A stretch of 50,040 bases of DNA from a virus (Duplodnaviria > Heunggongvirae > Uroviricota > Caudoviricetes). The DNA is taken from the IMG/VR virus record IMGVR_UViG_2529293039_000013; one strand, given 5' to 3'. The notes below the pieces were generated by a model. That model was not told the DNA's origin. It saw only the letters and a list, made by a program, of their open reading frames with translations, and did no database searches. Shown here piece after piece: positions 3,541 to 35,789 of the stretch (the stretch's first letter is position 1; each line of letters opens with the position of its first letter). The position numbers were made by a program, and so were the translations under genes.

Positions 3541-3951
3541 TCAGTATGTAAAATAGACAGTTGCCACGCCGTTATAGTGATCAAACGATACGGCATTTAC
3601 TTCGTAGCTGGCAGGGAGCTTCGATCCGAGAACGTATCCGGGCCACGTTTTCCATGGAATTTCTCTGCGCTCACTATCGCCATATACCGTACATCCCAGA
3701 GAGCCTACAGCTTCATTAGAACGCGTGCCGCACGTTATGAATCCCAGATTTTGCTTACTGCTCTTAATGGTGATTGGGTGAACGCTGGCTGATGCATTAG
3801 CAGCACGCTGTGCCTGTTGGTTTGCGATATTCGCAGAGTTCGCAGCAGCTACAGCAGCCGTAGTCGCGGCGGTAGAGGCTACAATAGCTGCTGAAGCATG
3901 CACTTGTTGGATATTCACCAACAATGCCGCGACAAAAATCATCTTCTTCAC
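3541..3951 (-). CDS. putative secreted protein with N-terminal signal peptide
   Basis: N-terminus MKKMIFVAALLVNIQQVHA resembles a Sec signal peptide; Ala/Asn-rich linker. Confidence 0.5.
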   Translation of the reverse strand: MKKMIFVAALLVNIQQVHASAAIVASTAATTAAVAAANSANIANQQAQRAANASASVHPITIKSSKQNLGFITCGTRSNEAVGSLGCTVYGDSERREIPWKTWPGYVLGSKLPASYEVNAVSFDHYNGVATVYFTY

Positions 3952-5777: not shown

Positions 5778-5842
5778 AATAAGTCCTCACTATATAAAGA
5801 TATTCAGTGATGAGATAAATAATCAGTTAATTAAGAACGATA

Positions 5843-6205
5843 TTAATGACCTGCTGCGCGTAGTTTTCCGTCAGGTTCACCGGCAAGAGTCAGTAATTGT
5901 CCCTGGTCTTCCTGCAGAATAGTCAGGCGACCACCGCGATTGACATACATCGGTGTTTCGGTGGTGTCTTCTTCGGAAATTTTCCCGCGGTTAGTCGGGC
6001 GAACATATGAGAGTTTGTGTTTGATTTTCACACGGTTCTCATCAAATGGTTCGATTTCCAGGTTGAGCGAGACCTTACCTTTGGTTTTCGTGTTCATCAC
6101 ACCGGAAGCGACTTCACTGAGAGCTGCGCCGATTTTGGTTTCAAATACGCCGCCGTCCAGCTCCCCGATAAATGCCTGCACATCAGTACTGCGTTCGCTA
6201 GCCAT
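5843..6205 (-). CDS. hypothetical protein, first gene of early-left operon
   Basis: internal start MASERSTD preceded by GAGGAG; track ORF extends further upstream without RBS support. Confidence 0.5.
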   Translation of the reverse strand: MASERSTDVQAFIGELDGGVFETKIGAALSEVASGVMNTKTKGKVSLNLEIEPFDENRVKIKHKLSYVRPTNRGKISEEDTTETPMYVNRGGRLTILQEDQGQLLTLAGEPDGKLRAAGH

Positions 6206-6547
6206 TTTGCTGCTCCTCATCATATCGACCCTGCAAGGTCGGTTAGTTTCTCCACAAAACAGAGAAGAACACCTGCGGTGGCAGCCGCCCGGATGGATTG
6301 GGTTATGAGCCCGTCGTCCGGTGATGTTCTTCTCTGTTTTGTAAAAAGAGCGGTACCAGCCGGAAGCAAGTGTACAAACTGGTACCGCCAAAGCAGTGGC
6401 TGTTGTGGTGACCGGTGCTGATCTCCGGCTTGCGGTTATTTCAGACTCTCACGGGCGTTTAATTGCCCCGCCGAACAGCTCTTTTCCGCAATAGCTGCAA
6501 TGTCTTTCGCGCATCAGCCTGCGCATTCACCACAACTCTAAAAACAA

Positions 6548-6600
6548 ATGTAGGATATCCAACATGCGAGTGTCAAGAGTTTATGTTGGTTATCCTACAT
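6548..6600 (-). promoter_or_regulatory. leftward early promoter (PL-like) with two 18-bp operator palindromes
   Basis: minus-strand TTGACA, 17-nt spacer, CTACAT; operators atgtaggatatccaacat and atgttggttatcctacat. Confidence 0.5.
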
Positions 6601-6616
6601 AAAAAGATAGGCTCAT

Positions 6617-6642
6617 AAAAAAACCGGGGATACCCCGGTTTT
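6617..6642 (-). terminator. intrinsic terminator downstream of repressor gene
   Basis: hairpin ccgggg-ata-ccccgg with flanking A and T runs, just 3' of cI stop. Confidence 0.5.
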
Positions 6643-6662
6643 GCGATAGTGAGGAAGATGTG

Positions 6663-7316
6663 TCAAAAATCCATTATTACTTGTTTGACAAGACCAACTA
6701 TTCTGCAGTTCTCACCGCATTCAATAGTTTTATAGTTAGGATTTAGTGGGACGAGATACCTGTTCGGCCAGTCCTCAACAAATTTTTTGAGTGTCGCTTC
6801 TTGCCCACCATTGATATGGGCAACAACGATTTTTCCGTTAATACACTCTGTATCAATAATATCTGGCTCTACGATAACGATAGAACCTTCTGGTATCGAT
6901 GGTGAGCCGAGGGGATTGGTCATTGAATCACCACGGACCCGTAGTGCAAATGCCATTTCTGATACAAGGGCGGTAGTATAAACCCACTCTTCAGCATCTT
7001 CTTTCCTGACACCAGGCTCCGTCATTGTCCATGAACCCGCCTGAACCCACGAGATTAGGGGGACTTTTTTAACTGCGAATATTTCAGGTTTTAGATTTAT
7101 CTTTGGTTCAGGCGAGCCTTTTCCGCTAACAAGCCACAGAGGATCGCATTTAAGTGCGTTGGCTAGGGCTTGAAGGTTGGCTCCATTTGGTTGGTAGTCG
7201 TCCTTTTCCCATCCAGTAACCGTGACACGGTTCACACCAGTCAAATCAGCCAGTGCTTGTTGTGTCAGGTTCAGTTCTTTTCGCCTTTGGCGAATACGAT
7301 CACTCATGTTCATCAT
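6663..7316 (-). CDS. cI: CI-type phage repressor (HTH domain plus S24 LexA-like peptidase domain)
   Basis: N-terminal HTH (LTQQALADLTGVNRVTVTGWE), C-terminal Ser/Lys autocleavage domain (GDSM...K). Confidence 0.85.
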   Translation of the reverse strand: MMNMSDRIRQRRKELNLTQQALADLTGVNRVTVTGWEKDDYQPNGANLQALANALKCDPLWLVSGKGSPEPKINLKPEIFAVKKVPLISWVQAGSWTMTEPGVRKEDAEEWVYTTALVSEMAFALRVRGDSMTNPLGSPSIPEGSIVIVEPDIIDTECINGKIVVAHINGGQEATLKKFVEDWPNRYLVPLNPNYKTIECGENCRIVGLVKQVIMDF

Positions 7317-7323
7317 GTAGGCA

Positions 7324-7385
7324 ATCCTACCACATGCCCATGTAGGATTCTTGACATTGGCATGTTGGATATCCTACATTTCTGC
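7324..7385 (+). promoter_or_regulatory. OR/PR-like region: rightward promoter overlapping operators
   Basis: TTGACA, 17-nt spacer, CTACAT on plus strand; operator atgttggatatcctacat; split palindrome atcctac...gtaggat. Confidence 0.55.
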
Positions 7386-7411
7386 TTAACGTAATTTAAC
7401 GGGAGACAGAA

Positions 7412-7609
7412 ATGCGGAAATCCGACGTGATTAATTATTTCGGCGGAGTTTGTAAAACCGCCGAAGCCCTAGGTATTAAGCATCCGTCTGTTTCAGAGTG
7501 GCCTGAGATTATTCCTGAAGGCCGAGCGTACCAGTTAGAAAAAATTACTAACGGGAAACTGAAAGTTGACGTGTCTTTATATCAAAAGACTAACAGTGCT
7601 GCGGCATAA
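7412..7609 (+). CDS. cro: Cro-like DNA-binding regulator
   Basis: 65-aa protein divergent from cI across the operator region. Confidence 0.7.
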   Translation: MRKSDVINYFGGVCKTAEALGIKHPSVSEWPEIIPEGRAYQLEKITNGKLKVDVSLYQKTNSAAA

Positions 7610-7636
7610 AAACACCACAGAAATGAGGAATTAACC

Positions 7637-8221
7637 GTGGGTAAAGAACCTGAATGGAAAGTTGATAAACAACCAGCATGGCTGGTGGCAGCAATACGAA
7701 GAACGATTGCTGATTTACCTCATGGCTATGAGGAAGCAGCAGAAATTCTTGGTTTGTATAAATCTGATGATATCACCCCAGCGAAAGATCAATTGCATAA
7801 CAGACTGCGTAGCGGTGGGGATCAAATTTTTCCACTTGAGTGGGCCATGGTTTTACAGGATGCCAGTGGTACCAGGCATGTAACGGATGCGATAGCGCGT
7901 CGTAGTAATGGGGTGTTTGTGCCGCTGGTGGACATTGATGACATTGACAATGGTGACATTAATCAGCGGCTGATGGAGTCAATAGAATGGATTGGCAAGC
8001 ATTCCCAGTACTTACGCAAGGCAACTGCTGATGGAGTTATTGACCAGGCTGAGCGTGAGCAAATCGAAGAGAACAGCTACCAAGTAATGGCGAAGTGGCA
8101 GGAGCATTTAACACTGTTATTTCGTGTTTTTTGTGCACCGGAAAAGAGTAACGCCCGCGAGTGTGCAGCTCCGGGCGTCGTGGCGTCGATTGCTTCTGGT
8201 TGTGGAGAAACTAACGCATGA
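7637..8221 (+). CDS. putative CII-like regulatory protein (family uncertain)
   Basis: position immediately after cro; GTG start; stop overlaps next gene start (ATGA). Confidence 0.35.
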   Translation: MGKEPEWKVDKQPAWLVAAIRRTIADLPHGYEEAAEILGLYKSDDITPAKDQLHNRLRSGGDQIFPLEWAMVLQDASGTRHVTDAIARRSNGVFVPLVDIDDIDNGDINQRLMESIEWIGKHSQYLRKATADGVIDQAEREQIEENSYQVMAKWQEHLTLLFRVFCAPEKSNARECAAPGVVASIASGCGETNA

Positions 8222-17364: not shown

Positions 17365-19218
17365 ATGTCGATTAAACATTATGATGTTGTCAGGGCGGCG
17401 TCGCCGTCAGACCTTGCGGAAAAGCTGACACACAAACTGAAAGAGGGCTGGCAGCCGTTTGGTAGTCCGGTGGCCATAACCCCTTATACCCTGATGCAGG
17501 CGATTACAGCAGAAGGTGATGTGGTGGTCAGTGGTGCAACTGAGCCGGATTGGTACTACGTCATCGTACTGGCCGGGCAGTCCAATGCCATGGCTTACGG
17601 TGAAGGGCTTCCGCTGCCGGATTCATACGATGCTCCGGATCCGCGCATTAAACAGCTGGCGCGCCGCAGTACAGTTACGCCGGGTGGGGCTGCATGCAGA
17701 TATAACGATATTATTCCGGCCGACCACTGCCTGCATGATGTGCAGGATATGAGTACGCTGAATCATCCGAAGGCAGACCTGAGCAAAGGGCAGTACGGCT
17801 GTGTCGGCCAGGGCTTACATATTGCCAAAAAACTGCTCCCGTATATCCCGAATAACGCGGGGATCCTGCTGGTACCATGCTGTCGTGGTGGTTCGGCATT
17901 CACCCAGGGCGCGGAGGGGACATTCAGTGCGGACACGGGGGCCAGCCAGGATTCGGCACGCTGGGGTGTGGGTAAACCGTTATATCAGGACCTGATTGCG
18001 CGCACTAAAGCTGCATTACAGAAGAACCCGAAAAATGTGTTGCTGGCGGTGTGCTGGATGCAGGGAGAGTTTGACATGAGCGCCGCCACCCACGCACAGC
18101 AACCTGCGCTGTTTACAGCCATGCTGACACAGTTTCGTGCTGACCTCTCCGTGTTTAACGCGCAGTGCCATGGTGGCAGTGCTGCAGATGTGCCGTGGAT
18201 TTGTGGTGACACGACGTATTACTGGAAAAATACATACGCTACCCAGTACGACACCGTGTACGGCGGGTATAAAAACAGGGAGAGTGAGGGCGTTTATTTT
18301 GTGCCCTTCATGACAGACGGTAACGGCGTCAATACCGCCACTAACGCACCGGCAGAAGATCCGGATATTCCGGCATCAGGATATTACGGTGCGGCATCGA
18401 GAACGAATGGAAACCAGGTATCATCAAACCGCCCGACACATTTCAGTTCATGGGCGCGCAGGAGCATTATTCCGGATCGTATGGCAACCGCTATTCTGAA
18501 CGCAGCCGGGCGCACCTCAGCTTTCATCAGTGGTAAGGCACCGGAAATCAAACCCTCGCCCGGCGGCAACACGCCATCGGGGCCGTCTGAAGATGCATCC
18601 GTACGCACAATCTCCCTGTTGCCGACAGCCGGAGAGGCTGCTGCGCAGGGCTGGACCATTAAGGACGGCGGAATTCAGTTGTCGGGTGGTGTATTTAAGA
18701 TCGCCAAGCAGAGCAATAAAACCTGGTCCCTGATGCATCCGGTGGATGACGCAGTCTCCCTGCTGACACGGGGTGGCAGACTGAGCTGTAAGTTTCGACT
18801 GTCAGGCGCACTGACCAACAACCAGTTCGGCCTGGGAATTTATCTGTATACCGATGTAGCGTTACCTGACGTCGTGGCGATGACCGGGACTGGTAACCCG
18901 TTCCTGATGTCGTTCTTCACCCAGACCACAGACGGCAAACTGAATCTGATGCATCACAAGAAAGCAGGAAACACAAAGTTGGGCGAGTTCGGGAATTACA
19001 GTAATGACTGGCAGACGCTGGAACTGGTGTTCACCGCCGGCAGTGCCACGGTTACTCCGAAACTGAATGGAGTGGCTGGCCCGGCATTCCAGGTCATAAA
19101 AGACAGTCTGACACTGGGGCTGAATGCGCTGACGCTGACGGATATTACCAAAAATGCAGCGTATGGCGTTGAGATAGAAAGTCTGGTGCTGGAGATAAAT
19201 GCACCGGCATCATCATAA
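17365..19218 (+). CDS. prophage sialate O-acetylesterase (NanS-p-like; DUF1737 N-terminus plus SASA domain)
   Basis: GQSN esterase motif (VLAGQSNAMAYGEG); 617 aa; position between Q/tRNAs and lysis genes. Confidence 0.8.
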   Translation: MSIKHYDVVRAASPSDLAEKLTHKLKEGWQPFGSPVAITPYTLMQAITAEGDVVVSGATEPDWYYVIVLAGQSNAMAYGEGLPLPDSYDAPDPRIKQLARRSTVTPGGAACRYNDIIPADHCLHDVQDMSTLNHPKADLSKGQYGCVGQGLHIAKKLLPYIPNNAGILLVPCCRGGSAFTQGAEGTFSADTGASQDSARWGVGKPLYQDLIARTKAALQKNPKNVLLAVCWMQGEFDMSAATHAQQPALFTAMLTQFRADLSVFNAQCHGGSAADVPWICGDTTYYWKNTYATQYDTVYGGYKNRESEGVYFVPFMTDGNGVNTATNAPAEDPDIPASGYYGAASRTNGNQVSSNRPTHFSSWARRSIIPDRMATAILNAAGRTSAFISGKAPEIKPSPGGNTPSGPSEDASVRTISLLPTAGEAAAQGWTIKDGGIQLSGGVFKIAKQSNKTWSLMHPVDDAVSLLTRGGRLSCKFRLSGALTNNQFGLGIYLYTDVALPDVVAMTGTGNPFLMSFFTQTTDGKLNLMHHKKAGNTKLGEFGNYSNDWQTLELVFTAGSATVTPKLNGVAGPAFQVIKDSLTLGLNALTLTDITKNAAYGVEIESLVLEINAPASS

Positions 19219-32358: not shown

Positions 32359-32790
32359 ATGTTTCTGAAAACAGAACAATTTGAATATAACGGTGTGTCC
32401 GTCACGCTTTCCGAATTGTCTGCGCTGCAGCGTATTGAGCATCTTGCCCTCCTGAAACGGCGTGCAGAACAGGCAGAATCCAGCGGCAACCTGCAGGTAA
32501 GCGTGGAAGATCTCGTCAGAACCGGCGCGTTTCTGGTGGCGATGTCCCTGTGGCATAACCATCCGCAGAAAACGGCATCACCGTCAATGAATGAGGCTGT
32601 GATGCAGATCGAACAGGAGGTGCTCACCACCTGGCCTGCGGATGCCATTGCCCGGGCGGAAGATGTGGTGTTGCGTCTGTCCGGGATGAGCGGGGCTGTT
32701 CATGCGGATACTGACAGCACCGAAGTGGCGAAAAATAACGCGCTGACTGATGATGATTTTTCTGCGGGAAAGTCTTCGACGGCGAGCTGA
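32359..32790 (+). CDS. tail assembly chaperone G
   Basis: MFLKTEQFEYNGVSVTLSELSALQRIEHLAL matches lambda gpG; GGAGG RBS. Confidence 0.8.
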   Translation: MFLKTEQFEYNGVSVTLSELSALQRIEHLALLKRRAEQAESSGNLQVSVEDLVRTGAFLVAMSLWHNHPQKTASPSMNEAVMQIEQEVLTTWPADAIARAEDVVLRLSGMSGAVHADTDSTEVAKNNALTDDDFSAGKSSTAS

Positions 32791-33230
32791 ATTTTGCCCT
32801 CAGACTGGCGCGTGAGATGGGGAGGCCTGACTGGCGCGCCATGCTTGCCGGGATGACATCCACCGAATATGCCGACTGGCGACATTTTTACCGTACGCAT
32901 TATTTTCTCGATACCCAACTGGATATGCATTTTTCCGGGCTGACGTACGCCGTACTCAGCCTGTTTTTTTGCGATCCGGATATGCATCCCTCTGATTTCA
33001 GTCTGCTTGCCCCCCGGCGTGAGGAAGCGCAGACGGAGATGCCGGATGAGGAAAAAATGCTGATGCAGAAAGCGGCAGGACTTGCCGGAGGCGTCCGGTT
33101 TGGTGGGGACGGAGGGCGTGAGATTTTATCGTCTGCGGATGTGGCGGATGTCAGCGAGGATGATGTCGCATTAATGATGGCTTCAGCGGGGATTTCCGGA
33201 GGTGTGAGATATGTCCCAGCCGGTTGGTGA
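32359..33230 (+). CDS. tail assembly chaperone G-T fusion made by programmed -1 frameshift
   Basis: slippery G GGA AAG near end of G; -1 frame continues as T-like sequence (FDGELNFALRLAREMGRPDWRAMLAG) to 33230. Confidence 0.65.
32766..32772 (+). promoter_or_regulatory. programmed -1 ribosomal frameshift slippery heptamer GGGAAAG
   Basis: canonical lambda G-T slippery sequence in the expected frame. Confidence 0.6.
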
Positions 33231-35789
33231 TCTTGTTATTGACCTGAGTCTGGATGCGGTCCGTTTCGATGAGCAGATGAGCCGGGTAAGGCGTCATTTT
33301 TCCGGACTGGAGACTGACGCCAGAAAAACCGCCGGTGTTGTTGAGCAGAACCTGAGTCGTCAGGCGCTGGCTGCACAAAAAGCCGGGATTTCCGTCGGGC
33401 AGTATAAAGCGGCCATGCGAACCCTGCCCGCACAGTTTACGGATATCGCCACGCAGCTTGCCGGTGGTCAGAATCCCTGGCTGATCCTGCTGCAACAGGG
33501 CGGTCAGGTGAAGGACTCCTTCGGCGGGATGATCCCCATGCTCAGGGGACTTGCCGGTGCGATCACCCTGCCGATGGTCGGGGTCACCTCGCTGGCGGTG
33601 GCGACAGGTGCGCTGGCGTACGCCTGGTACCAGGGGGATTCCACGCTTTCAGCGTTTAATAAAACCCTGGTTCTTTCCGGTAATCAGTCCGGACTGACTG
33701 CCGATCGCATGCTGACGCTCTCCAGAGCCGGACAGGCCGCAGGGCTGACGTTTAACCAGGCGAGTGAGTCACTGGCAGCCCTGGTGAATGCCGGTGTGCG
33801 TGGTGGTGAACAGTTTGATGCCATCAACCAGAGTGTCGCGCGTTTTGCTTCTGCATCCGGTGTGGAGGTGGACAAGGTTGCAGAGGCTTTCGGAAAACTG
33901 ACTACCGACCCGACGTCGGGACTGATGGCGATGGCGCGCCAGTTCCGTAACGTGACGGCAGAGCAGATTGCGTATGTTGCACAGCTGCAGCGTTCCGGAG
34001 ACGAGGCCGGGGCATTGCAGGCGGCGAACGATATCGCCACGAAAGGCTTTGATGAGCAGACCCGTCGCCTGAAAGAAAACATGGGAACACTGGAGACCTG
34101 GGCGGATAAAACAGGGAAGGCATTCAAATCGATGTGGGATGCCATTCTGGATATCGGTCGTCCTGAGTCCTCAGCGGATATGCTCGCCAGTGCACAGAAG
34201 GCATTTGATGAGGCGGATAAAAAATGGCAGTGGTACCAGAGCCGGAGCCAGCGCCGGGGAAAACCGCCTCTTTCCGGGCCAACCTTCAGGGCGCATGGAA
34301 TGACCGGGAAAATGCCCGTCTGGGGCTGGCAGCGGCCACGCTGCAGTCGGATATGGAAAAAGCCGGTGAACTGGCCGCCAGGGACCGGGCCGAACGGGAC
34401 GCATCACAGCTGAAGTATACCGGAGAGGCGCAGAAGGCGTATGAGCGTCTGCTGACGCCGCTGGAGAAATATACCGCCCGTCAGGAAGAACTGAATAAGG
34501 CCCTGAAAGACGGGAAAATCCTGCAGGCGGATTACAACACGCTGATGGCGGCGGCGAAAAAGGATTATGAATCGACGCTGAAAAAGCCGAAGTCGTCAGG
34601 AGTCAAAGTGTCAGCCGGTGAGCGTCAGGAAGACCAGGCGCATGCTGCCCTGCTGGCGCTTGAAACCGAGCTCCGGACGCTGGAAAAACACAGCGGTGCG
34701 AATGAGAAAATCAGCCAGCAGCGTCGCGATTTATGGAAAGCGGAAAATCAGTATGCGGTCCTGAAAGAGGCAGCCACGAAACGGCAGTTATCTGAGCAGG
34801 AAAAATCCCTGCTGACCCATGAGAAAGAGACGCTGGAGTACAAACGCCAGCTGGCTGAGCTGGGAGACAAAGTTGAACACCAGAAACGGCTGAATGAGCT
34901 GGCACAGCAGGCTGCGCGGTTTGAACAGCAGCAGAGTGCGAAGCAGGCGGCAATCAGTGCCCAGGCGCGGGGCCTCACCGACCGTCAGGTGCAGCGGGAG
35001 TCGGAAGAGCAGCGCCTTCGTGACGTGTACGGTGATAATCCGGATGCGCTGGCGAAGGCCACATCTGCACTGAAGAACACCTGGTCTGCGGAGGAGCAGC
35101 TTCGTGGAAGCTGGATGGCCGGTCTGAAGTCCGGCTGGGGCGAGTGGGCAGAAAGTGCGACGGACAGTTTTTCGCAGGTTAAAAGCGTGGCCACGCAGAC
35201 CTTTGACGGTATTGCACAGAATATGGCAGCGATGCTGACCGGCAGCGAACAGAGCTGGCGTGGTTTCACCCGTTCTGTGCTCTCCATGCTGACAGAGATT
35301 TTTCTGAAGCAGGCCATGGTGGGGATTGTCGGGAGTATTGGCAGCGCCATGGGTGGTGCTTTCGGTGGTGGGGCGTCTGCCTCCACGGGGACGGCCATTC
35401 AGGCTGCGGCGGCGAACTTCCATTTCGCGACCGGAGGATTTACGGGAACCGGTGGCAAATACGAACCTGCCGGTATTGTCCACCGCGGGGAGTTTGTCTT
35501 CACGAAGGAGGCAACCAGCCGGATTGGCGTCGGCAACCTGTATCGTCTGATGCGCGGGTATGCGGAAGGTGGTTATGTGGGCGGTGCCGGAAGTCCGGCG
35601 CAGATGCGGCGGGCGGAAGGCATTAGTTTTAATCAGAACAATCACGTGGTGATTCAGAACGACGGCACCAACGGACAGGCGGGGCCGCAGCTGATGAAGG
35701 CGGTGTATGACATGGCCCGCAAGGGGGCGCAGGATGAGATTCAGGCGCAGATGCGTGATGGCGGCGTCTTTTCCGGAGGCAGGCGATGA
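33211..35789 (+). pseudogene. tail tape measure protein H, interrupted by a frameshift
   Basis: track ORFs 33211-34413 and 34224-35789 in different frames; both match lambda gpH; junction at an A-run. Confidence 0.8.

Follow-up and report, generated by a model that had tools for sequence, protein, structure and literature searches.

A putative P22 C2-family immunity switch in a lambdoid Escherichia coli prophage and its predicted operator specificity

The DNA analysed here, referred to below as the window, is a stretch of 50,040 nt from a tailed phage of the Caudoviricetes (IMG/VR record IMGVR_UViG_2529293039_000013). It carries a cI-type repressor gene and a small cro gene, which diverge from an intergenic region of 95 bp and are surrounded by a compact set of promoters and repeated 18-bp sites (Table 1). 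A repressor with a helix-turn-helix (HTH) and an S24 domain, divergent from a small cro, is the gene arrangement of a lambdoid cI/Cro switch, and we assign the pair to this type on the basis of sequence. The N-terminal HTH of CI is homologous to the N-terminal domain of P22 C2: in phmmer comparisons with the PDB chains 1adr, 2r1j and 3jxb, residues 4-66, 63 aa in all, aligned with no gaps at E values of 2.6e-15 to 3.6e-15. At its C-terminal end the protein shows homology to lambda cI (E 7e-25), and the Ala-Gly, Ser and Lys of autocleavage are aligned: VQAG, GDSMT and TLKK in this repressor correspond to VQAG, GNSMT and TFKK in lambda cI. Across 17 aligned relatives these residues are kept, apart from GSSMT or GTSMT in three and TFKQ in one (L020), and the recognition helix GVNRVTVTGWE shows no variation in relatives. 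The intrinsic terminator of cI recurs in the relatives as a hairpin and T-run at the same position, with differing stem sequences. On the other flank of the left promoter PL, a leader of ~335 nt is followed by yfdP, yfdQ and yfdR, and an N homologue is not among the genes annotated there; an N-type antiterminator at the head of the PL operon is a mark of lambda in the strict sense and is not universal. An Rfam scan of positions 5800-8000 at a permissive threshold returned two sub-threshold chance matches only, and thus no known RNA element in or beside the switch.

Table 1. Coordinates of the genes, predicted operators and predicted promoter elements of the immunity region in the window.
Feature	Position	Strand	Description	Score or support
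Immunity cassette	6537..7613		PL/OL, cI terminator, cI, OR/PR and cro; putative single exchange unit	1077 bp
PL -10	6547..6552	minus	TACATT; last 5 nt of OL1 + T	TACATT retained in relatives
OL1	6548..6565	minus	Exact 18-mer copy; spans PL spacer and -10	PWM 30.3; kept in all relatives
PL -35	6571..6576	minus	TTGACA; between OL1 and OL2
OL2	6583..6600	plus	18-mer with 1 mismatch, at central position 8; immediately upstream of PL -35	PWM 27.6
cI terminator	6617..6642	minus	Intrinsic; stem CCGGGG/CCCCGG + A-U pairs, then U run	-17 kcal/mol, z -3.4
cI	6663-7316	minus	cI-type repressor, 217 aa	HTH_3 1.1e-15; Peptidase_S24 3.7e-25
OR3	7315..7332	plus	ATGTAGGCAATCCTACCA; 2-nt overlap with cI ATG	PWM 20.0, above 19.9, the top of 200 shuffles
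Candidate PRM	7324..7332	minus	Extended -10 TGGTAGGAT; ends 7 nt before cI AUG	Sequence reading
OR2	7340..7357	plus	ATGTAGGATTCTTGACAT; degenerate; right half contains PR -35	PWM 12.7; alone not significant in 50 kb
PR -35	7351..7356	plus	TTGACA	TCTTGACAT unchanged in relatives
OR1	7362..7379	plus	Exact 18-mer copy; spans PR spacer and -10	PWM 30.3
PR -10	7375..7380	plus	TACATT	TACTAT at same position in mEp390 and YeP1
cro	7412..7609	plus	65 aa, P22_Cro family; GGGAGA ahead of gene	PF14549, E 7.6e-22
cII-like regulator	7637..8221	plus	YmfL / Phage_CP76; outside cassette, opens the shared right arm as its first gene

The 18-mer ATGTTGGATATCCTACAT is present in two exact copies, OL1 and OR1, and in one copy with a single mismatch, OL2. 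These three are its sole matches at up to three mismatches in the 50,040 bases; shuffled sequences gave an expectation of 0.03 matches and none of 100 shuffles attained the observed count. An earlier sequence-only reading had proposed that mirrored PL and PR modules flank the repressor gene, and the proposal holds: the promoter-plus-operator module forms a 40-nt inverted repeat (6539-6578 and 7349-7388, 88% complementary), the gene between its arms is a real cI, and PR and PL, each TTGACA-18-TACATT with 10/12 matches, rank highest among the sigma-70-like sites of 6100-7700. Other parts of that reading needed adjustment. The 18-bp palindrome does occur twice on the left (once with the mismatch) and once on the right, but it is imperfect, with a self-complementarity of 16/18 and with positions 5 and 14 both A or both T. 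The promoter string TTGACA-17-CTACAT(T) covers the same DNA, but the -10 is better read one base later, as TACATT with an 18-nt spacer, since mEp390 and YeP1 carry TACTAT at PR there. TGTCAA, the PL -35, is unchanged in relatives, and the 5-nt spacers that flank it vary.

To score the operators we used a position weight matrix (PWM) built from relatives alone, with the window excluded. OR1, OL1, OL2 and OR3 are the four best 18-mers of the 50-kb window, and OR2 ranks sixth; in 200 shuffled 50-kb sequences the maximum score was 10.1±2.8 and the single highest 19.9. Information is concentrated in positions 2-4, 6-7, 12-13 and 15-17 (1.25-1.8 bits), with 0.85 bits at the A/T-degenerate positions 5 and 14 and 0.67-0.89 bits at positions 8-11, giving the consensus ATGTWGG-N4-CCWACAT, the four central base pairs of which vary. 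A match at 3904-3921 (12.9 bits), in coding sequence of the left operon, is within the chance range and was not accepted as an operator, and the scan of 6601-6662 for a third OL site was empty. On the strength of the comparison with relatives we propose a five-site model, in which the distance is 25 bp from OR3 to OR2 and 22 bp from OR2 to OR1, and OL1 and OL2 lie 35 bp apart with the PL -35 between them, so that several predicted operator copies overlap the early promoters on both flanks of cI. The inventory of the right side had previously consisted of OR1 and a split variant at the cI start. Both locations stand, but the cI-proximal site is a contiguous, degenerate OR3; the split reading, CCTAC-C-ACAT, was dropped, the bases after CCTACCA being unconserved in relatives. 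The weaker, fifth site OR2, which makes OR tripartite, had been missed.

The earlier reading had suggested searching for the operator in other prophages, and this search proved productive. The exact 18-mer was found at 99 IMG/VR loci, 97 of which have cI and/or cro homologues adjoining it, with CI 49-100% identical to that of the window. The shared site family extends over prophages of Escherichia, Enterobacter, Erwinia, Pantoea and Morganella, and takes in coliphage mEp390 and Yersinia phage YeP1. A degenerate operator pattern gave 41 matches in 596 Gb of genomes, where ~35 are expected by chance according to our estimate; only 4, all in Enterobacterales, adjoin cI/cro, and the other 37, in unrelated phyla with no cI/cro nearby, were dismissed as chance. 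The first set of relatives was picked by exact 18-mer match, which makes one site per locus identical by construction. Loci ascertained via the protein carry the same sites, mitigating but not removing this operator-based ascertainment bias. In the resulting phylogenetic footprint the positions of the sites, the 25/22- and 35-bp spacings and the outer bases are kept, and the spacers, flanks and central 4 bp vary. The centre-to-centre distance between OL1 and OL2 is retained in 16/17 relatives, the centres of OL2 differ freely, and OR3 is near-invariant among relatives with CI 49-100% identical. The left half of OR2, GTAGG or GTAAG, and its spacing to OR1 are retained in every relative. At a finer scale, we compared 64 loci with a CI identity of 99% or more. 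None of the nine common SNP columns falls within an 18-mer (9/73 columns outside versus 0/88 inside, Fisher p 6e-4, counts and test that overstate independence because the loci are phylogenetically related), and polymorphism peaks in the spacers 7336-7339 and 7359-7361. In 3/64 of these near-identical loci an A at 6590 turns OL2 into an exact copy of the 18-mer.

Could the 40-nt modules be duplicated promoters and nothing else, with the symmetry of the 18-mer incidental, or serving Cro or a host factor rather than CI? Each exact copy overlaps promoter elements, and selection on the promoters could by itself keep some of its bases. However, OL2 and OR3 are conserved although they lie outside the PL and PR hexamers, the conservation is two-fold symmetric around a variable centre, as at P22 repressor sites, a change of half-site goes with a change in the neighbouring repressor's recognition helix, and nearly all loci with the 18-mer have switch genes alongside. 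We therefore regard this reading as very improbable indeed. A narrower objection concerns OR3, which might be kept for the cI -10, a Shine-Dalgarno-like AGGA and the start codon rather than for a repressor, leaving OR with two operators. The near-invariance of 7315-7332 extends to CAAT in the centre and CA at the end, beyond the operator consensus, which suggests additional or other constraints; moreover, TGGTAGGAT-N7-ATG is readable as an extended -10, and AGGA stands 8 nt before the ATG. Yet the site outscores everything in the 200 shuffled sequences, and the identical position, abutting the repressor ATG, is occupied by a P22-type operator in P22-type relatives. The position therefore tracks repressor specificity, unlike a pure promoter or ribosome-binding element, and a two-operator OR appears improbable.

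The case for OR2 is more delicate. If 7340-7357 were a chance half-site beside the PR -35, OR1 alone would control PR, mirroring PL, and several observations speak for this: the score of OR2 is in the range of the best chance match in 50 kb and drops to 0.6-5 bits in some relatives, its right half is dictated by TTGACAT, and the left-side mirror position, 6569-6586, which we rejected as a PL -35 counterpart of OR2, holds one half-site without a matching second half. But every relative retains (A/T)(T/G)GTA(G/A)G as the left half, with an unchanged spacing of 22 bp to OR1 and between highly polymorphic spacers; the right half continues to provide ..ACAT, which makes up the four outer bases of a half-site, and the OR2 position holds a complete operator in P22-type relatives. 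A chance origin of OR2 is thus unlikely, albeit a reading to be taken seriously, and we retain the five-site model in what follows.

The helix NRVTVTG pairs with ATGTAGG sites, and the P22-type helix SNVAISQ pairs with ATTTAAG at the same positions; helix and half-site covary in the sequences compared. The homologous layout makes this pair a natural case for studying how the specificity of P22-type repressors changes. The predicted operator specificity is common to repressors down to 49% identity in several genera of Enterobacterales, and is not that of one phage. Together, conservation and covariation provide comparative backing for the earlier proposal that the shared operator defines the immunity specificity. 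A full-text search, in literature of limited coverage, found no publication with the operator strings TGTAGGATATCC and GGATATCCTACAT, which is weak evidence of novelty, and in the searchable literature we found no published description of the DNA-recognition specificity, nor data on binding, footprints or mapped transcripts for this repressor.

In comparison with phages of other immunities, homology to the window ends at ~6536 on the left and restarts at ~7614 on the right, and these edges fall at the start of PL and the end of cro, consistent with the immunity region acting as an exchangeable module. The 1077-bp cassette is present at an identity of at least 99% in 140 of 5426 complete E. coli genomes (~2.6%), and the wider 2.2 kb around it, compared at the same threshold, in 135. 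The Stx1 phage Lys8385Vzw has the cassette too, as do Stx2c phages. The window prophage itself was considered as a toxin phage and rejected as such, since the stx1 segment of Lys8385Vzw has zero matches in the 50,040-nt window. The published account of this near-identical Stx1 phage gives CI, Cro and CII, as well as N, as absent (PMC7946995); our analysis shows that CI, Cro and CII of Lys8385Vzw are present after all, together with the full operator set. The cassette would govern the induction of prophages in ~2.6% of complete E. coli genomes, Stx1- and Stx2c-converting phages included, and its operator set would decide mutual exclusion among phages and the ease with which toxin phages are induced.

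Very probably, then, the region is a lambdoid E. coli prophage immunity switch of the P22 C2 repressor family that works as follows; repressor binding, the order of affinities, transcription starts and the position of PRM are what we infer from sequence. Dimers of the 217-aa CI would recognise ATGTWGG-N4-CCWACAT via the helix-turn-helix containing GVNRVTVTGWE. Since OL1 and OR1 lie across the spacer and the TACATT -10, repressor bound there would exclude RNA polymerase from both early promoters, shutting off PL and PR. Further occupancy would come from OR2, half operator and half PR -35, and from OL2, upstream of the PL -35. The start codon of cI and TGGTAGGAT are both overlapped by OR3, and repressor or Cro on this site would turn off cI maintenance transcription. 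The latter probably begins at or next to the AUG, giving a leaderless transcript with a start inferred at about 7316; the string TGG+TA[AG]G[AC]T+7 nt+ATG is found at 120/123 loci with this type of cI. Cro, made from PR and belonging to the P22_Cro family, is expected on the same sites, and the Ala-Gly, Ser and Lys autocleavage residues would render the prophage SOS-inducible.

The geometry bears on how such a switch might be regulated. In lambda, OR2 is centred at ~-42 relative to the PRM start. Here, if PRM starts at the AUG, the centre of OR2 falls at ~-32.5, a poor fit to the lambda-style arrangement, and therefore lambda-style activation of PRM cannot be assumed. The 35 bp between OL1 and OL2 amount to ~3.3 helical turns, and side-by-side cooperativity is not obviously favoured. 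OR3 outscores OR2 both in the window and in the 13 loci scored in register, although PWM scores are not affinities. It is conceivable, though we consider it doubtful, that the switch is wired unlike those of lambda and P22, with low repressor and easy induction, and at the same time defines a single cross-genus immunity group. The argument for different wiring is that OR3, a conserved site of fair strength, is fused with the extended -10 of a leaderless PRM, that OR2 is weak, is half PR -35 and, centred near -32 of PRM, would be non-activating, and that OL holds two sites only, 35 bp apart. If true, positive autoregulation would be slight or absent, cI synthesis would stop early, repressor would be low and induction easy, which matters for Shiga-toxin phages, and prophages of Escherichia, Enterobacter, Erwinia, Pantoea, Morganella and perhaps Yersinia would constitute one immunity group.

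Among known systems, the closest in design is that of P22, the layout of which we read in the P22-like phage SE10 and the P22-type loci L165, L166 and L175 and set beside that of the window and of 16 relatives. The full-length identity between P22 C2-type repressors and CI is ~44-45%. P22 operators are 18 bp long and two-fold symmetric, with 7-bp outer halves around an unconserved 4-bp centre, and the information profile obtained here is shaped alike; the P22 repressor contacts positions 2-7 and 12-17 of its 18-bp sites and not 8-11 (PMC4267663). An 18-bp symmetric operator with an unspecified central 4 bp points to the P22 C2 and phage 21 family. The immunity of coliphage 21 is reportedly closely related to immC of P22. 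As here, the P22 system has three OR sites with OR3 abutting the repressor ATG, at spacings of 23/25 bp in a P22-like phage against 22/25 bp in this switch, and on the left OL1 gives the PL spacer and -10, followed by the -35 and by OL2 35 bp off; P22 and this switch also have in common a P22_Cro-family cro and an S24 autocleavage domain. The half-site and the helix are different, ATGTAGG or ATGTTGG and NRVTVTG here, ATTTAAG and SNVAISQ in P22, and therefore we predict a family member with an immunity specificity other than that of P22, outside its immunity group. Three further differences from P22 are that the PWM scan found no third OL site here, that the candidate extended -10 for PRM is seen in this type only and is absent from the P22 type, and that PR here has its -35 inside OR2 and its -10 at the end of OR1, whereas the best P22-type hexamers, TTGACT-16-GATAAT, appear to lie about one operator further upstream.

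With lambda the switch has its logic in common: a repressor gene between PL and PR, a divergent cro, a tripartite OR and one site over the repressor promoter. The lambda PRM transcript is leaderless, as is the maintenance transcript predicted here. Differences lie in the operators, which are 17 bp in lambda and 18 bp here with unrelated sequences, in the N-terminal domain of CI, which is of the P22/434 type, unlike that of lambda, in OR3, which in lambda ends 10 nt upstream of the ATG and here overlaps it, in the number of OL sites (three in lambda, two here), and in what follows PL, N in lambda and here yfdP/yfdQ/yfdR with no N homologue annotated. The Stx phage 933W also lacks an OL3 site (PMC5977221), as this switch seemingly does by PWM scan. 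The repressor of Stx phage BAA2326 has similar affinities for OR2 and OR3, and alternative binding strategies have been tied to low repressor and easy induction; the higher score of OR3 relative to OR2 recalls this pattern, within the limits of PWM scores as a stand-in for affinities. CI proteins of Stx phages are only distantly related to the CI studied here (~34-36% identity), and the operators of 933W are unrelated. Beyond the identical group, the closest sequenced isolates are mEp390 and the Yersinia phages YeP1-3, with CI 60-66% identical. They are alike in the helix GV(N/S)RVTVTGWE, in ATGTAGGCAATCCTACCA at the cI ATG, in the sites over TTGAC and the -10 and in the OL1/-35/OL2 order, and they differ at the outer bases of single sites (e.g. 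...CCTACTA and ...TCTGACAT) and in having TACTAT as the -10; we came across no experiments on the operators of these phages. All in all, the switch is of the ordinary P22/lambda kind, textbook in type apart from the pairing of helix and half-site.

The window is a lambdoid E. coli prophage whose early region is 95-99% identical to Stx1 phage Lys8385Vzw and several Stx2c phages, and whose late region is lambda-like. The stretch 6548-7385 brackets a cI-like gene, with cro to its right across a 95-bp gap. Rightward of cro lie a cII-like YmfL/Phage_CP76 gene and then a Rha/Ash gene, and leftward of cI come a terminator hairpin, a promoter region, a leader of ~335 nt and the minus-strand genes yfdP/yfdQ/yfdR. 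The PR operon also holds a second, small 'LexA family transcriptional regulator' gene (108 aa, ~11540-11866) between an adenine methyltransferase gene and rusA (position transferred from 9441-9767 of L001, the Lys8385Vzw locus). The stx1 segment of Lys8385Vzw has no match anywhere in the window: the place that stx1AB occupies downstream of Q in Lys8385Vzw is taken in the window by tRNA-Met, tRNA-Arg(tcg) and tRNA-Arg(tct) (15439-15688; region 15285-17372), followed by unrelated DNA with a 167-aa ORF (16383-16886). The prophage appears to be related to Stx phages but to lack stx.

Features of the predicted immunity region, with the arrangement seen in relatives
Feature	Position	Strand	Description
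cI-like repressor	6663-7316	minus	217 aa; N-terminal HTH_3 (E 1.1e-15), C-terminal Peptidase_S24 (E 3.7e-25)
cro	7412-7609	plus	65 aa; P22_Cro family (E 7.6e-22)
PL hexamers	6576-6547	minus	TTGACA-18-TACATT; one of the region's two best sigma-70-like sites
PR hexamers	7351-7380	plus	TTGACA-18-TACATT; one of the region's two best sigma-70-like sites
OL1	6548-6565	minus	exact ATGTTGGATATCCTACAT
OL2	6583-6600	plus	ATGTTGGATATCCTACAT with 1 mismatch
Left side in relatives			beyond cI terminator: OL2, 5 variable nt, TGTCAA (PL -35), 5 variable nt, OL1
OR3	7315-7332	plus	relatives: at cI start, 2-nt overlap with cI ATG; ATGTAGGCAATCCTACCA, then variable spacer
OR2	7340-7357	plus	relatives: right of OR3, contains PR -35; (A/T)(T/G)GTA(G/A)G-N2-TCTTGACAT, then variable 4-nt spacer
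OR1	7362-7379	plus	exact ATGTTGGATATCCTACAT; relatives: right of OR2, complete 18-mer + T gives -10 TACATT
PL leader	6205-6540	minus	predicted PL start to yfdP
Leader hairpins	6254-6342, 6350-6389	minus	one with 25-nt arms ending just upstream of yfdP start; second with 10-bp GC-rich arms

The sequence-only reading had proposed that mirrored early promoters sharing an 18-bp operator palindrome flank the repressor gene. This arrangement was confirmed by the exact copies of the 18-mer, by a 40-nt inverted repeat that encloses them (6539-6578 / 7349-7388, 88% complementary) and by the two promoters being the top two sigma-70-like sites. Allowing up to three mismatches, no further ATGTTGGATATCCTACAT site was found in the 50 kb, the chance expectation for matches being 0.03. 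Several details required revision. The listed copies are real, but the palindrome is imperfect (16/18 self-complementary positions) and OR2 had been overlooked; the supposed 'split variant' by the cI start is a contiguous 18-mer, OR3; and TACATT, instead of CTACAT, is taken as the -10. Searching other prophages for the operator, a check that the reading had suggested, showed that 97 of the 99 IMG/VR contigs with an exact 18-mer carry a cI and/or cro homologue directly beside it (cI 49-100% and Cro 67-100% identical). With these corrections, its interpretation is supported by the sequence comparisons. Across 596 Gb of sequence, at one genome per species, the degenerate pattern ATGTWGGATATCCWACAT gave 41 matches versus ~35 estimated by chance; only four adjoin cI/cro, all in Enterobacterales (Enterobacter soli, Erwinia tracheiphila, Pantoea brenneri and Morganella morganii).

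Among 17 non-redundant relatives, oriented as the window, centre-to-centre spacings are 25-26 bp (OR3-OR2) and 22 bp (OR2-OR1), OL1-OL2 spacing is 35 bp in 16, and the central four bases of OL2 vary freely. A symmetric PWM trained on the relatives' sites only has 1.25-1.8 bits at positions 2-4, 6-7, 12-13 and 15-17, 0.85 bits at positions 5 and 14 (consensus W) and 0.67-0.89 bits at positions 8-11. Among all 18-mers of the window, the five sites take ranks 1, 2, 3, 4 and 6 (30.3, 30.3, 27.6, 20.0 and 12.7), versus a shuffle maximum of 10.1±2.8 (largest value 19.9); OR2, at 12.7, is therefore supported through its location and its conservation rather than by score alone. The fifth-ranked TTGTTGGATATTCACCAA (3904-3921, 12.9 bits) was rejected: its score is within the chance range, and it sits in coding sequence of the left operon, close to the junction of two minus-strand ORFs. 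In 64 loci with cI at least 99% identical, common polymorphisms (minor allele in at least 5/64) occupy nine columns (6567-6569, 7338-7339, 7360-7361, 7381 and 7406), all in spacers or downstream of the -10; that is 0/88 columns inside the 18-mers versus 9/73 outside (Fisher p 6e-4, indicative only since the loci are related). At 6567, in the OL1 to -35 spacer, the window has the minor allele C (11 loci) versus T (53), and an A at 6590 (OL2 position 8) in 3/64 loci makes OL2 a third exact copy.

Since the first locus set had been found via the operator, a second was gathered via the protein. L151, L152 and L163, which are related to L020, the most divergent cI, lack any exact 18-mer, yet have the same five sites, as do coliphage mEp390 (cI 60% identical) and Yersinia phage YeP1 (64%). 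In the next homologue shell (62% to L020) the recognition helix is that of P22, GVSNVAISQWER, and the loci carry P22-type sites, ATTTAAG...CTTAAAT, at matching positions (by the repressor ATG, around the -35, and as OL1/-35/OL2); P22-like phage SE10 has the same layout of sites. All window-type repressors have GVNRVTVTGWE. The two helices go with different half-sites at the same positions, so that helix and half-site covary in a conserved layout; no stronger in silico argument could be obtained for the 18-mers being the repressor's operators.

We propose that repressor dimers on OL1 and OR1 would mask PL and PR at their spacers and -10 hexamers, with the predicted OR2 overlapping the PR -35 and OL2 abutting the PL -35. 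Read on the cI strand, OR3 is TGGTAGGAT-TGCCTAC-ATG, a putative extended -10 (TGn + TAnnnT) and candidate PRM. As it ends 7 nt before the AUG, it suggests a leaderless maintenance transcript, resembling that of lambda, which is leaderless. OR3 departs from the palindrome (terminal CA, not AT; conserved), and precisely this supplies the TG of the motif, which is kept in 120/123 loci of this type. An AGGA in the same stretch, 8 nt before the AUG, could serve transcripts arriving from further upstream. Repressor occupancy of OR3 would stop cI synthesis; since a PRM start at the AUG would centre OR2 near -32.5, we do not claim PRM activation by repressor. A hairpin and U run directly after the cI stop codon would end cI transcripts before OL, and relatives have a hairpin at the same place with different stem sequences.

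The predicted leader folds far more stably than its shuffles (-140 kcal/mol, z -5.3). Phages with other immunity cassettes (mEp460, cdtI and Stx2a phages) carry it at 96-99% identity, and no Rfam family matches it. It could act in the PL operon as a processing, termination or antitermination element. The first ORF past the predicted PL start (6449-6526, minus; 25 aa, MRRLMRERHCSYCGKELFGGAIKRP) has a CxxC motif, lacks annotation in the related records examined and is near-identical or else unrelated in relatives.

Homology with other-immunity phages ends at ~6536, the predicted PL start, and resumes at ~7614, immediately beyond the cro stop. A copy of the 1077-bp cassette (6537-7613) with at least 99% identity is present in 140 of 5426 complete E. 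coli genomes. Of its 142 occurrences, two lie on plasmid records, and one genome or more has two copies; phage-plasmids, or double lysogens with one immunity, may account for these. An identical cI is found in six deposited phages (Lys8385Vzw, three Stx2c phages, vB_EcoM-720R4 and SKA5). CI, Cro, CII, CIII and N were listed as absent from Lys8385Vzw (PMC7946995). Its record MT225100.1 carries the same cI, cro and cII-like genes at 32687-34245 (window 6663-8221), labelled 'LexA family transcriptional repressor', 'hypothetical protein' and 'DNA-binding protein'; the reported absence of CI, Cro and a CII-like protein is an annotation gap.

No description of this operator specificity was found in the searchable literature. 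Over its N-terminal 66 residues, cI aligns gap-free with the N-terminal domain of P22 C2 (E 2.6e-15); its C-terminal domain can be aligned with lambda cI (E 7e-25), and there the Ala-Gly site, Ser and Lys line up. The P22 repressor dimer binds 18-bp sites, contacting positions 2-7 and 12-17, not the central four bp, with Asn46 at the minor groove (PMC4267663); the PNG motif of that region is conserved here. Because of this N-terminal homology, the shared 18-bp site pattern and the PNG motif, we place the predicted switch in the P22 C2-type family, with a specificity that differs from that of P22; it does not belong to the P22 immunity group itself, as both half-site and helix differ. Studies of 933W and BAA2326 connect low repressor levels and ease of induction with alternative modes of repressor binding; they report that OR2 and OR3 affinities are similar in BAA2326 and that 933W has no OL3 (PMC5977221). 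A PWM scan of the window found no third OL site, and OR3 is far closer to consensus than OR2 in the 13 loci scored in register; since PWM scores are not affinities, the likeness to these Stx-phage switches is suggestive only. As an immunity switch, the element is typical of the lambdoid, P22 type.
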